Positions 21,710 to 32,619 of a DNA stretch of 64,000 nt are shown one piece after another (the first letter of the stretch is position 1; each line of letters opens with the position of its first letter). The stretch covers positions 32,001-96,000 of the forward strand of contig JAYOYH010000002.1 in NCBI GenBank assembly GCA_038153405.1. Direction: 5' to 3'. Position numbers and translations under genes: made by a program. A model generated the notes under the pieces. The model made no database searches. It saw only the letters and a list, made by a program, of their open reading frames with translations, and had not been told where the DNA came from. Source of the stretch: Gemmatimonadota bacterium (GTDB lineage: Bacteria; Latescibacterota; UBA2968; UBA8231).

Positions 21710-21785
21710 TGGCAGGGCCGGCAGGACTTGAACCTGCAACCGCCGGTTTTGGAGACCGGAGCTCTACCAATTGAGCTACGACCCT
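21710..21785 (-). tRNA. tRNA-Trp(CCA)
   Basis: AGGGTCGTAGCTCAATTGG...CTCCAAA...GTTCAAG...CCA; 76 nt. Confidence 0.96.
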
Positions 21786-21791
21786 ACCCTT

Positions 21792-21944
21792 TTAACGGGT
21801 CTCCTTATGCACGTGGTGTTTGCGGCAGAACCGACAGTACTTCTTGTACTCTACCCGACTTGGCTGAGTTCTGCGGTTCTTGGTAGCAGTGTAGTTGCGT
21901 CGACTGCACCCTTCGCATTCCAATGTGATCTGTTCTCTCGGCAT
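21792..21944 (-). CDS. rpmG: 50S ribosomal protein L33 (Zn-binding type; absent from the ORF track)
   Basis: Manual translation MPREQITLECEGCSRRNYTATKNRRTQPSRVEYKKYCRFCRKHHVHKETR. Confidence 0.96.
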   Translation of the reverse strand: MPREQITLECEGCSRRNYTATKNRRTQPSRVEYKKYCRFCRKHHVHKETR

Positions 21945-21991
21945 GATTACTCACAGTCCGTCCGTTTTACTCTTGGGAGACAACAAATTTC

Positions 21992-22067
<76 letters not shown>

Positions 22068-22085
22068 CTAAATTGCCGAAACAAA

Positions 22086-22161
22086 TGGAGCGGGAGACGG
22101 GAGTCGAACCCGCGACATCAAGCTTGGAAGGCTTGCGCTCTGCCAACTGAGCTACTCCCGC
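22086..22161 (-). tRNA. tRNA-Gly(TCC)
   Basis: GCGGGAGTAGCTCAG...CTTCCAAG...TTCGA...CCA. Confidence 0.96.
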
Positions 22162-22205
22162 ACACGCAATTTTACACACCGTGTCAATCTCTTGACAGAC
22201 CGATA

Positions 22206-22234
22206 AAGATAGGACTGCAGTTTTAGTCTGTCAA
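22206..22234 (-). promoter_or_regulatory. sigma70-type promoter of the tRNA-rpmG-secE-nusG unit
   Basis: TTGACA-17 bp-TATCTT, 44 bp upstream of tRNA-Gly. Confidence 0.75.
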
Positions 22235-22247
22235 GACATGTACAAAT

Positions 22248-22284
22248 TATGGCGGCCTCCCACGTTATGTGGAACGCCGCCGTA
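22248..22284 (-). terminator. Hairpin downstream of the Zn-finger gene
   Basis: TATGGCGGC...GCCGCCGTA with inner CCAC/GTGG; weak U tail. Confidence 0.4.
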
Positions 22285-22312
22285 TCCCCACCGATCTTTC
22301 GCAGTGCCTAGA

Positions 22313-22714
22313 CTAGGCGCTGCGCCGCTGGTCAGAAGAAGCCTGTTTGGGCAGGTAGTACTCGCTCATATAGTGCTTTTTGCAAAAGCCGCGCGAAGAG
22401 TGCTTTTCGGCACAGCCGGGCACCAAGCACAGTTTGCGACCGTAAATGCGTTCGCGCTCCGGCGTCAGGCGACCGTAGCGGCGAACCTGCTGGTAGTGGC
22501 GAAAGCAATATGCTTTGGCGGCCTGCTCCTCGCCGCACCCCACCACGACGCATCCGTTGCCCCGCTTGCCGTATTCGCGCTCCGGCGTCAAGCGCCCATG
22601 CCTGCGCATCTGCTGGTAGTGGCGCGGACAAAAACCGCACGTGCGCGCCTCCACTTCGCATCCATCGGCCTTGCACAGGATGTGCCACTTCGCTTTGAGT
22701 ATCTTGTTTTCCAT
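22313..22714 (-). CDS. Small basic protein with three C-x4-C-x9-C-x2-H-Y putative Zn-finger repeats
   Basis: CKADGC..CPRHY, CVVVGC..CFRHY, CLVPGC..CKKHY; GRLTPERE repeated; GAGG upstream of ATG (MENK). Confidence 0.85.
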   Translation of the reverse strand: MENKILKAKWHILCKADGCEVEARTCGFCPRHYQQMRRHGRLTPEREYGKRGNGCVVVGCGEEQAAKAYCFRHYQQVRRYGRLTPERERIYGRKLCLVPGCAEKHSSRGFCKKHYMSEYYLPKQASSDQRRSA

Positions 22715-22763
22715 GGTGACCCTCTCTATGCGTGACATACACTCGACTATACAACGCCACACC

Positions 22764-22779
22764 AGCAAAGGACGTACCG
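22764..22779 (-). promoter_or_regulatory. sigma54 (-24/-12) promoter
   Basis: CGGTACGTCCTTTGCT = GG-N10-GC, close to consensus TGGCACG-N4-TTGCW. Confidence 0.8.
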
Positions 22780-22888
22780 CATGAAAACAACGGAATGGTA
22801 GCCGCGCTTAAAATTTCATAAAGAATTATTTTTACAATTCTTACAACAAAGACGGTAAAATGTATCGCCACCGTCTATGAGAAAGGCT

Positions 22889-23006
22889 TGTCTCATATAT
22901 GATACTGGCCGGAGACCGAGGCGCACGCTAAATACTTATTTTTAAAGGATTAATGGAGCATACAGGACTGTGTCAATTATGAGACAAGTATCTCAAATTT
23001 GACACT
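22889..23006. promoter_or_regulatory. Three 18-bp palindromic enhancer (UAS)-like sites and an AT-rich IHF-like tract
   Basis: TGTCTCA-TATA-TGATACT (22889), TGTGTCA-ATTA-TGAGACA (22969), TATCTCA-AATT-TGACACT (22989); TAAATACTTATTTTTAAAGGATTA between them. Confidence 0.7.
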
Positions 23007-25375
23007 TCACGTAGCAAATCGTGCTCTCTCAGCCGGCGATACAGGGTCGCTCTGCTGATCCCAAGCCGCGCAGCGGCTTTGACCACGTCGCCTTCTTCCG
23101 CGCGCAGCGCCTCCAAATACAGGCGGCGCACGGCTTCGCGATGGCCCTTTTGCGCTCCCTCAAAGCCGGAATCCTCGGCACCGCTGGCCAACTCCGCTTC
23201 CTGCAACAGGCTCGGCGGCAAATCTTCCAGCGCAATGGTTCGATCTTTGACTAGGGCGACGGCGTGCTCTATCGCGTTTTCAAGTTCGCGCACGTTGCCC
23301 GGCCACGGGTAGCGGGACAGTAACTGGAGGGTCTCGGGGTCAACGCGCGTAACAACTTTGCCATTGCGCTCGGCAAATACGCGCACAAAGCGCTCGACAA
23401 AGAGGGGGATATCTTCCTGGCGCTCTCTCAGGGGTGGAACGTCCAGCGCGATTACGTTGAGCCGGTAGAGCAGGTCTCTGCGAAAGCCTCCCCCCTCGAC
23501 TTCGCGGTGCAAATCGCGGTTGGTCGCCGCAATCAGGCGACAATCGATGGGGATGGTCCGATCGCCGCCGACGCGAACGATCGTCTTTTCCTGTAGAACG
23601 CGCAGCAATTTCACCTGCACTTCGGGAGGGACTTCGCCAATTTCATCGAGGAATATCGTTCCACCGCTGGCCAACTCAAACTTGCCCAAGCGCCCCTTTT
23701 TGCTGGCGCCGGTAAAGGCGCCTTCGACATAGCCAAAGAGCTCACTCTCGATGAGATCGCGCGGCAGAGCAGCGCAGTTAACTGCGAGGAAAGGCCCCTC
23801 ACTAAAGGCACTCGCATTGTGAATGGCCTGGGCAAACACCTCTTTGCCGGTGCCGGTCTCACCCTGAATGAGAATATTGGAACTCGTCCCTGCCGCGATG
23901 CGCGCCAGCTCTTTGGCCTTTTCTATCACCGAACTGTTGCCGATGATGTCATCGAAGGAATAGGTGCGCTGAACACCGATAACCCGATGCACTAGCCGCC
24001 CCACTTCGCCCATCTCGCGAAAGGTTAACACCGCGCCAGTCGTCTGTCCTTCGCCGTCCATAACCGGCTGTAAATTGGCCATGGCGGCAACGGCACCCAC
24101 GGTGGCGCGCAGCGTTATCACCCTGTTGTTGAACTGCCCCCCCTCGGCCAACCACGAGCGCAGCGGCGGTTTGTCCTCGACCAAGTCATCCGCACGCACG
24201 CGCTCATCGCCGGTGATGCGACGACCGAGAATGCGAGCGGCGACGGCATTGATCTCCTCGACGTAGCCATCGCGATCAATGGCGATCAACCCATCCGAAA
24301 TGGACTGCAGCAGGGCCTGGGAGCGGCTGTAGAGCTGTCGGAGCTGCGCGCCCTGCTGTTTTTCGCTGCGCACGAGCTCCTGCAAGCGCCCCGTCAAGCG
24401 AATGTCTTCAATTTCTGCGGCGATCTGGCTCGACAGGGCAAATAGCATACTGAGATCGTCTATGCTAAAGCGGCGGCGCTCCGTGCCCAGCGGCGCAATT
24501 TTATCAAAGAGCGTCAGCGTGCCAACAATGCGATCTTCCAAGACGAGCGGCACGCAGACCATAGACGCGCCCAGATCTTGGGGATTTCGCGGCGCCCTCA
24601 CGTCGTCTATCATAATCGGCTCGCCGGTCGCAGCGACGTATTCGGCGATGCGCCTTTCGCACTGCAGATCCAACTCGTTTTCCGTCTCGATAACTACCGT
24701 AGCCAAGGCGAGCGAACCATCTTCGACGAGCAGGCGGATGGCTGCTCCTTTCGCCCGCAGCACATCGGCCGCCAAGCTGGCAATCAGCTCTAACGACTCG
24801 TCCAAGCCGAGCCCGGAATTCATCGCCTGCCCCAACTCATTGAGCGCCTGCACTTCGTCGGAACGCCGCTCCATAGTCTGACGCACTTCCACCGCGTTGA
24901 TCAACGCCAGAACGAGGCTGCGCGCAGCTTCTAGGGCGCCCACCTCGTCTGCGCTATAGCGGCGCACGGCTACACTCTGCAGGTTGATTACCCCGCGCAA
25001 CTCGCCGCCATCCTCAATCGGCACGGCGATGATGCTGGCGTAGCTCTCGGCCTGTGCGACCTTCGCCAATACGGCGGAGCGGGGATCGCGTCCCATGTGC
25101 GGAACCTGGACGATTTTCCGGTGCAATCCCGCAGCGCCGGTTATGCCTTGACCGAGTCGCAGTCGGACTGCTTGCCCCTGCACCGGACCGTGCGACGCGC
25201 TCAGAACGAGCTCGTCCATGCGCCCGTCGAGCAAATAGAGCGCACAAAAATCGGCCCCGAAAGTCTCGGCAAAGAGGCGCACGAGCGCATTTAAGCTCGT
25301 TGGATCCGGAGATGCAATATGGGCCAGCGTCTGGCGCCACAGTTCTCGCTCTATATTGAAGGACTCATTTACCAT
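22973..25375 (-). CDS. sigma54-dependent activator (GAF-GAF-PAS-AAA+-HTH)
   Basis: GETGTGKE, ESELFGYVEGAFTGA, FLDEIGE, WPGNVREL, LGISRATLYRRL; start trimmed to MVNES because the longer ORF overlaps greA. Confidence 0.93.
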   Translation of the reverse strand: MVNESFNIERELWRQTLAHIASPDPTSLNALVRLFAETFGADFCALYLLDGRMDELVLSASHGPVQGQAVRLRLGQGITGAAGLHRKIVQVPHMGRDPRSAVLAKVAQAESYASIIAVPIEDGGELRGVINLQSVAVRRYSADEVGALEAARSLVLALINAVEVRQTMERRSDEVQALNELGQAMNSGLGLDESLELIASLAADVLRAKGAAIRLLVEDGSLALATVVIETENELDLQCERRIAEYVAATGEPIMIDDVRAPRNPQDLGASMVCVPLVLEDRIVGTLTLFDKIAPLGTERRRFSIDDLSMLFALSSQIAAEIEDIRLTGRLQELVRSEKQQGAQLRQLYSRSQALLQSISDGLIAIDRDGYVEEINAVAARILGRRITGDERVRADDLVEDKPPLRSWLAEGGQFNNRVITLRATVGAVAAMANLQPVMDGEGQTTGAVLTFREMGEVGRLVHRVIGVQRTYSFDDIIGNSSVIEKAKELARIAAGTSSNILIQGETGTGKEVFAQAIHNASAFSEGPFLAVNCAALPRDLIESELFGYVEGAFTGASKKGRLGKFELASGGTIFLDEIGEVPPEVQVKLLRVLQEKTIVRVGGDRTIPIDCRLIAATNRDLHREVEGGGFRRDLLYRLNVIALDVPPLRERQEDIPLFVERFVRVFAERNGKVVTRVDPETLQLLSRYPWPGNVRELENAIEHAVALVKDRTIALEDLPPSLLQEAELASGAEDSGFEGAQKGHREAVRRLYLEALRAEEGDVVKAAARLGISRATLYRRLREHDLLREVSNLRYLSHN

Positions 25376-25386
25376 AACAACGCAAC

Positions 25387-25419
25387 AAAAAAAACTCCCG
25401 GAGCCTGAGCCCCGGGAGT
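25387..25419 (-). terminator. Intrinsic terminator downstream of greA
   Basis: ACTCCCGGGGC-TCAG-GCTCCGGGAGT ending in a T8 tract. Confidence 0.85.
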
Positions 25420-25442
25420 CGACATTGGGATAGACGGGGTTA

Positions 25443-31533: not shown

Positions 31534-32619
31534 ATGCAGACCCACGCGCCCAAAGAGCATCGGCGCAAAATTCTCTACCTGCACGTCAATAACCTAGCCG
31601 TGTGCAGCGCTCAGCATCAATCCGAGCGCTGGAATACCCATCCCTGCATCGTCGCCGATCGTATCGTGCGCGCCGCATCGCCGGCCGCTCAACGGCTGGG
31701 CATAGAACAGGGCATGCAGCGCAGCCAAGCCCTCCGCATCGCCCCACGCGTCGAATGCATCGGTCCTGCGACCGACATTAGCGCTGATCTAGGCGGGCAA
31801 TTGGAAGCCATCTTGCTCGAGTACACCGACCTCGTAGAAGCCAAGTCTCCCTGCGAGTACTTCCTCGATATCACCTATAACAAGATGGACATACCCATCG
31901 GTTTGCGCGCCGCACAGCTGCTGCGCGGCGACCTAAGCCGCGAGTTGGCGCTTGATACGACAATGGCGTTAGCGCCGAACAAACTACTCGCTCAAATGGT
32001 CCATAAAACCGGCGATGGGCGTCCTATATACGTGCTAGAAAGAGACGAAGTAGAGGCTTTCCTAGCCGACAAACCCATCGATCTTCTACCAGGTGTAGGT
32101 GCGAAGATACGGCACCGGCTGCACGCCCTTCGCATTGAGCACATTGGCCAGCTCGCCCAGGCCGACCTGAGCGAACTCCAGGCCCACTGCGGGCATTTAG
32201 CCTCAAAGCTACACCGGGGTGCGCGCGGCATCGATCACGCACCGGTCGCTCCGCATGTTGATGCCGCTTTTCTCTCGGCCGACATCCACTTACCCGTCCC
32301 CCTTTACGACATGAGAGAGATCTGTGCCGCCCTGCGTGCCCCCGTTGAGGATCTGGTAGGCCGCTTGCGCCGGCGCCCCATGCGCAGTCGCCATATCAGC
32401 GTGCAGATATGGCCAAACAACGGCCGCACCGACGCCTTCGAACGCGAGTTATCACACGATTCCAATCGCGCAGAGGCGCTCTTAGAAGCTATCGCCCAAT
32501 GCGTCGAACAGGCCCCCGCACGGGCGGCAGGTATGCGCGGCTGCCGCATAGAAATCCACCCACATAGCGACAAAGCATCAAGACAGCTCGACCTGTTCAC
32601 CTCTTCCAACGCACCGTAA
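31534..32619 (+). CDS. Y-family (DinB-like) polymerase homolog with degenerate active site
   Basis: AASPAA..GI..GM, EYFLDIT, APNKLLA, LPGVG; C-terminal QLDLF clamp motif. Confidence 0.82.
   Translation: MQTHAPKEHRRKILYLHVNNLAVCSAQHQSERWNTHPCIVADRIVRAASPAAQRLGIEQGMQRSQALRIAPRVECIGPATDISADLGGQLEAILLEYTDLVEAKSPCEYFLDITYNKMDIPIGLRAAQLLRGDLSRELALDTTMALAPNKLLAQMVHKTGDGRPIYVLERDEVEAFLADKPIDLLPGVGAKIRHRLHALRIEHIGQLAQADLSELQAHCGHLASKLHRGARGIDHAPVAPHVDAAFLSADIHLPVPLYDMREICAALRAPVEDLVGRLRRRPMRSRHISVQIWPNNGRTDAFERELSHDSNRAEALLEAIAQCVEQAPARAAGMRGCRIEIHPHSDKASRQLDLFTSSNAP

Follow-up and report, generated by a model that had tools for sequence, protein, structure and literature searches.

A predicted sigma54 regulon in a family of Latescibacterota, with a three-finger protein and small membrane peptides as candidate outputs

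The window analysed here is the 64,000-nucleotide stretch from position 32,001 to 96,000 of contig JAYOYH010000002.1 (assembly GCA_038153405.1) of a Gemmatimonadota bacterium that is assigned to Latescibacterota in GTDB. Positions 22,313 to 25,375 of the window hold a two-gene module, which encodes a sigma54 enhancer-binding activator (P0002) and a small basic protein with three zinc-finger-like repeats (P0001). Comparison of sequences makes it moderately probable that the module belongs to a lineage-specific sigma54 regulon. Its outputs would be of two kinds: a second-tier regulator that probably binds DNA, and between one and three small membrane peptides. The initial annotation described the module as a self-contained circuit. 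The circuit is not self-contained, because a second conserved sigma54 promoter with a triple palindrome exists in the same genome, in front of a 40-residue peptide (G000:C36).

Two promoters with triple palindromes

The three palindromes upstream of the finger gene fit the pattern RTCTCA-N4-TGAGAY and were scored with a 16-bp palindromic matrix with the consensus GTCTCA-N4-TGAGAC. Their number in the 64 kb is within chance (three against 1.95 expected; 32 of 100 shuffles reach three), as is that of sigma54 sites (one against 0.45 expected). The clustering of the palindromes and their conservation exceed chance. The three palindromes and the GG-N10-GC promoter, which had been named in the initial annotation, are present and have counterparts in 22 of 22 linked loci, and none of 30 shuffles reached the score at any locus. 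The leave-one-out site sums of the linked loci are 28–59, with shuffle means of -3 to 9, and sites 1 and 2 are spaced 20 bp apart in all 22. No site sum above 15.8 was found in 23 unlinked regions, a comparison that left out L044, L050, L069, L076, and L079, which have short upstream sequences or a broken gene.

The AT-rich, IHF-like tract of the initial annotation stands in part. The tract is AT-rich (16% GC), and the spacer is AT-richer than its own locus in 21 of the 22 loci. However, the IHF consensus matches the tract only with two mismatches. An IHF site is not established, as the exact consensus occurs in one of 22 loci, and with at most one mismatch in eight, in a count that has no control. 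The genome also holds four HU/IHF-family genes. The Shine-Dalgarno-like sequence, the 133-residue gene, and the hairpin behind it were found in the order that had been annotated; the hairpin has a folding z-score of -2.6 (4 of 200 shuffles), lacks a T-run, and was not called by the terminator scan. The DNA of sites 1 and 2 is doubly used, since it also forms the final codons of the activator gene and its stop codon, and the bound activator could block its own transcript.

A scan of 2111 sigma54-like sites in the genome has two outliers, the finger-gene locus with a score of 59.9 and G000:C36:36445 with 56.2; the next score is 19.3. There are only two such promoters in this assembly, and neither of the two predicted targets is an enzyme, so the scan gives no cognate metabolic operon. 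The second promoter precedes an open reading frame (ORF) of 40 residues with one hydrophobic helix. Profile matches to this peptide, with E < 1e-11, are present in 14 of 61 genomes of the family, from five genera: in 14 of the 28 genomes with the activator and in none of the 33 without it. The compared genomes are kin, and many of them are incomplete. When the finger-gene loci alone were used to train the matrix, a sigma54 site was found in all 14 peptide loci, which beat 30 of 30 shuffles, and all three palindromes are upstream in 13 of them. The peptide locus of G033, a genome in which the module is frameshifted, has only 201 nt of upstream sequence, with two sites close in. Nine relatives of the peptide were found by protein alone, and a strict composite motif pattern matched only two of 41 genomes. 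A fifteenth match, with an E-value of 0.0014, has none of the motifs and was taken as chance.

One or two further hydrophobic ORFs of 30–40 residues are present in 10 of the 14 peptide loci, and 12 of the 14 are near an lnt-like gene. (The labels greA, nusG, rplK, sbcD, dnaK, lnt, hydrolase, and phytanoyl-CoA-dioxygenase-like were read from translations and not from a family scan.) The Kyte-Doolittle means of the peptides over 19 residues are 1.97–2.38, and nonsynonymous polymorphism (pN) is lower than synonymous polymorphism (pS) in six of six pairs. The peptide has no match in Pfam, NCBIfam, or PADLOC; its matches in the Atlas are all below 0.9 (MmpB 0.84), and no antitoxin-type RNA above the Rfam gathering score was found nearby. 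An identity as Flp pilin was considered and dropped since Pfam gave no match.

Two further promoters were considered as targets. In L119 (G027:C507), a third candidate promoter with a site sum of 30 precedes another hydrophobic ORF of 40 residues beside an lnt-like gene, which suggests that the peptide locus was split in this genus. The promoter of a dnaK-like gene (C2:113645) was rejected as it has a single palindrome without partner sites. In addition to its sigma54-type promoter, the dnaK-like gene (L081:5740-5760, at about 113.7 kb of G000:C2) is preceded by an inverted repeat of a different type.

The initial annotation had proposed to look for co-occurrence of the two genes and motifs in other genomes, and this was found. 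Among the 61 family genomes, 28 have the activator, 30 the finger gene, 26 both, and 29 neither. The activator is followed by an intact finger gene in 21 of 48 surveyed finger-gene loci. Where the contig extends far enough, all 21 are flanked by greA on the upstream side and by tRNA-Gly on the downstream side. The remaining 27 loci comprise one broken finger gene, two that start at a contig edge, two without the activator (L046 and L047), and 22 paralogues located elsewhere. Activator identity tracks greA identity, with rho of 0.70 over pairs of 20 loci that are not independent.

In L046 and L047, the finger gene is in place, and the activator, the palindromes, and the sigma54 promoter are all missing. 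This joint loss indicates that the present activator, and not another bacterial enhancer-binding protein (bEBP), reads the sites, and we consider this wiring, as judged from co-occurrence in sequences, very probable. The competing view that another bEBP reads the palindromes, or that the cassette has no function in the host and is the decaying remnant of a mobile element, appears highly improbable. It draws on the number of bEBP-type motifs in the genome, on the patchy distribution of the module, on the kinship of the finger protein with mobile endonucleases, and on module genes with frameshifts or stops in G033:C49, G011:C679, and G023:C271, which reflect either decay or assembly error; both genes are broken in G033. 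It is opposed by the disappearance of the sites upon loss of the activator, the occurrence of the remote target only alongside it, purifying selection, the tracking of greA identity by activator identity, and the lack of a nuclease or integrase in the cassette.

Several points weigh against the proposed regulon. The genome has at least 11 bEBP-type motifs, and therefore the assignment of the activator to the sites rests on co-occurrence. The seed of the palindrome matrix was picked by eye from these loci, and sites 1 and 2 overlap coding sequence, which adds conservation. Of the 30 genomes with the finger gene, four lack the activator, and the paralogue on contig C4 of the same genome has neither a sigma54 promoter nor the palindromes. 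The motif pattern itself first led to four of the 14 peptide loci, which so are not independent, and 14 of the 28 activator-bearing genomes, many of them incomplete, have no peptide match. The assembly is 93% complete, and further targets may be missed.

The three-finger protein

Three fingers with the full repeat C-x4-C-x9-C-x2-H-Y-x5-G, arranged in tandem, fill all 133 residues of P0001. The protein has an isoelectric point of 9.6 and a net charge of +15. The pN/pS ratio of its gene is 0.10–0.36 in 23 of 23 comparisons, which corresponds to purifying selection and identifies the finger gene as a real gene. An ORF on the opposite strand (22238-22735) was rejected, as stop codons interrupt the in-register antisense frame in 13 of 23 relatives. 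Across 86 sequences, the helix residues HYQQ.R and R.T/L.PE.E/R vary little or not at all. The protein is conserved at 57–90% in one bacterial family, of which 30 of the 75 other genomes gave a match; 92 genomes from other families of the phylum gave two single-finger matches only.

No Pfam or NCBIfam family matches P0001 above the cut-off, no HNH domain of Pfam is present, and PADLOC has no match. In PHROG the protein matches HNH endonuclease families, with a best E-value of 7e-22. Six of the 14 viral models matched at E ≤ 0.001 are named endonucleases, and five of the eight matched phage records are annotated HNH genes. An HNH-AP2 protein has three repeats at its N-terminus to which P0001 aligns at 38% over 106 residues, and HNH or EndoVII is present in 20 of 50 longer relatives. 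Among 102 long representatives, drawn from the best 150 matches, the domain counts, whose overlap is not resolved, are HNH 20, HNH_3 17, HNH_5 14, EndoVII 4, and Zf_WRKY19 40. The repeat family has 13,123 representatives. P0124, P0125, and P0128, which are from one contig with the source name Bacillus toyonensis, contain long arrays of this finger and have no recorded Pfam domain, and the "Cys-rich domain protein" ORF010 of Bacillus phage 0305phi8-36 also matches the finger.

The finger protein likely corresponds to the DNA-binding module of HNH endonucleases, here without a nuclease; that the repeats bind DNA in the nucleases we infer from their position. The homology supports the suggestion in the initial annotation that the basic Cys/His-repeat protein may bind nucleic acid. 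P0001 itself is not an HNH or EndoVII homing endonuclease, since the nuclease domain is missing. It is not a classical C2H2 zinc finger either: the pattern is Cys3His, and the matches to C2H2 structures have TM-scores of 0.14–0.23, which are not significant. In the finger-protein tree, a poorly supported branch (89/61) has the stand-alone forms to one side. Because the tree is unrooted, the branch is weak, and there are long-branch warnings, the direction of origin is not given by it.

The predicted structure of P0001 contains three hairpin-helix units (predicted local distance difference test, pLDDT, 71; predicted TM-score, pTM, 0.35) and weakly resembles A20/GATA treble-clef fingers, with a best Z-score of 4.1, a root-mean-square deviation of 1.1 over 31 residues, and a Foldseek E-value of 1.6. 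Three results speak against a DNA-binding role: many relatives of P0001 have no nuclease (HNH in 20 of 102 and HNH_3 in 17 of 102), no solved structure matches it significantly in a PDB sequence search or in fold searches, and the weak fold matches are A20 fingers, which bind the protein ubiquitin. It is possible, although unlikely, that the regulon is as proposed and the finger protein binds protein or RNA, with the peptides modulating a membrane protein. It might, for instance, act in feedback on the activator, on RNA polymerase, or on sigma as a binding partner. The A20-type match of the single finger and a match to the anti-sigma factor CsfB (Z-score 2.2), both below the reliable level, fit this possibility, as does the joint breakage of activator and finger gene in G033. 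However, the finger gene is intact without the activator in L046 and L047, several paralogues are unlinked, the closest sequence relatives of the protein precede DNA nucleases, and the net charge of the protein is +15.

The paralogues differ in their surroundings. The second three-finger gene of the genome (G000:C4:126276-126629; L030/L082) is 56% identical and is positioned between ABC permease-like and TetR-like genes. The paralogues L051, L053, L054, L055, and L067 (also L072, L073, and L078) have their own sigma54-like site at -134 to -153, without the palindromes described here, and L051 and L055 are preceded by an ORF of 620–690 residues with no Pfam family above the cut-off. Other activators may thus place members of the finger family under the control of sigma54.

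Contigs from RNA libraries that are nearly identical to the finger gene were present in four of four runs, and to the peptide gene in one of four (two studies). Twelve runs were listed and four compared; the runs were found using the present stretch, and the contigs give neither transcript start, strand, nor level. The four runs with finger-gene contigs also cover ribosomal-protein genes. No listed RNA contig covers positions 22811-23057.

An alternative function of the regulon is a resting-state switch, in which the finger protein would coat or compact DNA with low specificity and the peptides would lower the membrane potential or remodel the membrane. The sole outputs, a small basic protein and hydrophobic peptides of 30–40 residues that are accompanied by extra such ORFs in 10 of 14 loci, would suit this function. 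The automatic Atlas name of the finger-protein cluster, "putative Vegetative protein", points in the same direction. VegA, the "vegetative protein" of Myxococcus, would be a small basic protein with one such finger; a literature search on VegA found no paper. A further parallel is YohP, which lowers the proton motive force and condenses the nucleoid according to the available text of PMC12719787. The parallel is one of analogy only. Against the switch, the peptide lacks a family match or a nearby antitoxin-type RNA above threshold, the invariant helix residues fit specific recognition better, and the presence of finger-gene contigs in all four runs that cover ribosomal-protein genes does not suggest a rare state. 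We regard the resting-state switch as quite improbable.

The activator and the neighbouring tRNA cluster

The activator has the intact GAFTGA motif and the GAF-GAF-PAS architecture of the initial annotation. The Pfam scan finds two GAF stretches, Sigma54_activat (PF00158, E 3e-67), and HTH_8 (PF02954, E 2e-8); the PAS fold is borderline, with 21.2 bits against a cut-off of 22.6. GAFTG is invariant among 22 activator sequences, the final A is kept in at least 90% of them, and the orthologues are 59–92% identical. The rpoN gene, which the initial annotation proposed to look for, is located at G000:C32. Against NCBIfam the activator is below the cut-off for all 25 best-matching named families.

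The two GAF domains differ in conservation. GAF1 is variable, with a mean identity of 0.42, and its nearest named solved relatives are the GAF domains of phosphoenolpyruvate-protein phosphotransferases. GAF2 is conserved, with a mean identity of 0.74; its nearest solved relatives are GAF domains of HD-GYP proteins, PDE5, and NifA, with weak E-values of 5e-5 to 4e-3. It contains a conserved DK..F..DD stretch, which we take to resemble the NKFDE motif. Neither domain has a conserved histidine across the compared activator sequences, and each has one conserved cysteine, C44 in GAF1 and C274 in GAF2. Nearly all close relatives of GAF2 (at least 59% identity) are the same activator, mostly from metagenome-assembled genomes of Latescibacterota and Gemmatimonadota. 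GAF2 is likely the sensing domain, as judged from these alignments; an AlphaFold model of this sensor region, made from one sequence, has a pLDDT of 34 and was not used. The activator gene starts at 25375, about 18 nt past the terminator-like hairpin of greA, without a clear Shine-Dalgarno sequence, and it may be expressed at a low level through read-through from greA.

The initial annotation stated that the circuit points into a tRNA/ribosomal/rpoBC cluster. The cluster is only a neighbour of the module, and no functional link was found. In 28 of 29 regions, among them eight of eight without the module, the sequence before tRNA-Gly best matches a sigma70 promoter of the form TTGACA-16/18-TA. 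The module is missing at this place in eight of eight checked genomes of the family, two of them from the same genus, and the distance from greA to nusG is 0.9–1.3 kb in these genomes against 4.0 kb in the window. One RNA-library contig, the strand of which is not given and which may be DNA, spans 22142-22541 across the hairpin, so some read-through toward the tRNA cluster may occur. This contig, the missing T-run of the hairpin, and the conserved placement before tRNA-Gly would agree with a self-contained unit of which the transcript or product controls the adjacent cluster. The existence of a second target, the cluster's own sigma70 promoter with or without the module, and the absence of the module from this place in the checked genomes make such control very improbable. 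The tRNA promoter region (22190-22234) contains a 9-bp inverted repeat, TTGACAGAC...GTCTGTCAA, and its GTCTRT half is also present in several genomes without the module.

Features of the module and its borders, in positions of the window
Feature	Positions	Strand	Remarks
tRNA-Gly, tRNA-Thr, tRNA-Trp	21710..22161	-	downstream neighbours
sigma70-type promoter of tRNA cluster, TTGACA-17-TATCTT	22206..22234	-	module boundary, outside module
GC-rich hairpin 3' of finger gene	22251..22280	-	folding score; no T-run
P0001, basic protein with three C-x4-C-x9-C-x2-H fingers	22313..22714	-	133 aa; no nuclease domain
Shine-Dalgarno-like GAGAGGG	22720..22726	-	5 nt before finger-gene ATG
sigma54 -24/-12 promoter (GG-N10-GC), CGGTACGTCCTTTGCT	22764..22779	-	motif match
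AT-rich tract, possible bending/IHF site	22807..22849	.	16% GC; weak consensus match
Predicted enhancer site 3	22890..22905	.	-126 from sigma54 site
Predicted enhancer site 2	22970..22985	.	-206; overlaps activator stop codon
Predicted enhancer site 1	22990..23005	.	-226 from sigma54 site; in last codons of activator
P0002, sigma54 enhancer-binding activator, GAF1-GAF2-PAS-AAA+-helix-turn-helix	22973..25375	-	800 aa
Fis-type helix-turn-helix	23024..23113	-	Pfam HTH_8
AAA+ sigma54-interaction domain	23444..23947	-	Pfam; Walker A GETGTGKE and GAFTGA
GAFTGA motif	23705-23722		inside AAA+ domain
PAS-like domain	24014..24319	-	aa 353-454; under Pfam cut-off
GAF2 domain	24407..24805	-	aa 191-323; Pfam
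GAF1 domain	24926..25294	-	aa 28-150; Pfam
Terminator-like hairpin of upstream greA-like gene	25393..25420	-	terminator scan

The proposed regulon and known systems

Enhancer-binding proteins bind their sites as dimers, and the AAA+ oligomer, once released by a signal, drives the ATP-dependent opening of the sigma54 promoter. In the proposed regulon, activator dimers would bind the three palindromes at each of the two promoters, a small-molecule ligand at GAF2 would release the AAA+ oligomer, and ATP-driven opening of both promoters would follow. The first promoter would yield the three-finger protein, a predicted binder of zinc and DNA that may serve as a second-tier regulator, and the distant second promoter would yield one to three tiny predicted membrane peptides. 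The activation machinery would be textbook, and the outputs would be new, unnamed, non-metabolic, and unusual for this class of regulator.

The analysis provides a small, testable regulon, with an activator, an operator consensus, and two promoters, derived from sequence alone in a lineage of aquatic bacteria without cultured members. Both outputs belong to unnamed families, which annotation calls hypothetical or, at 40 residues, overlooks. If the finger protein binds DNA specifically, it would open a first way into a repeat family of very large size and would show, on a chromosome, a nuclease-associated module that serves as a host regulator. A bolder possibility, which we consider doubtful, is that this uncultured phylum has a sigma54 switch dedicated to a change of cell state, for example dormancy. 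In that case a homing-endonuclease-derived DNA-binding array would act as the master regulator, membrane peptides of 30–40 residues as effectors, and a nucleotide-like ligand of GAF2 as the trigger, and the tandem Cys3His arrays, which have more than 13,000 representatives, would make up a modular family of DNA readers that has so far gone unrecognised.

No published account of such a layout came up in a literature search, the range of which leaves out supplements and most subscription papers. A term search of the main text of a sigma54-regulon survey (PMC12316311) gave no mention of Latescibacterota. Among the systems with comparable outputs, the available text on YohP (PMC12719787) describes a protein that, like the peptides here, is shorter than 50 residues and has one helix; no sequence relationship of the peptides to systems of this kind was found. 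Other small proteins share this build, and TisB and MgrB are stress-induced membrane proteins of fewer than 50 residues with one helix. The sigma54 system of Chlamydia with CtcC reportedly has non-metabolic, membrane-related outputs, and CtcC is said to be a two-component regulator with a large regulon.

The activator shares the AAA+/GAFTGA/helix-turn-helix core, an N-terminal GAF domain, and the presence of several dyad sites over 100 bp ahead of a -24/-12 promoter with the GAF/PAS-type bEBPs PrdR, NifA, DhaR, AcoR, NorR, and PexR. It differs from the PrdR, NifA, DhaR, and NorR equivalogs in that it is below their cut-offs (394 against 795 for PrdR and 348 against 529 for NifA), has two GAF domains, and has predicted targets that are not enzymes. 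PexR, as far as the available text describes it (PMC12754779), has this arrangement of sites, and the activator here lacks a conserved histidine, unlike the PexR pocket.

The same tandem Cys3His repeat as in P0001 is present at the N-termini of phage HNH/EndoVII proteins (phrog_5351 and phrog_1271, which overlap Pfam Zf_WRKY19 and DUF5763). In contrast to these arrays, P0001 is stand-alone, nuclease-free, chromosomal, and preceded by a predicted sigma54 enhancer. A nuclease-less, Cys-rich relative of homing endonucleases, CapR of the Vibrio cholerae PLE, is a DNA-binding repressor according to the available text of PMC8096241. CapR has a CxxC..CxC pattern and is encoded in a phage satellite, whereas P0001 has three Cys3His repeats and is encoded on a chromosome, and the likeness between the two is one of analogy.

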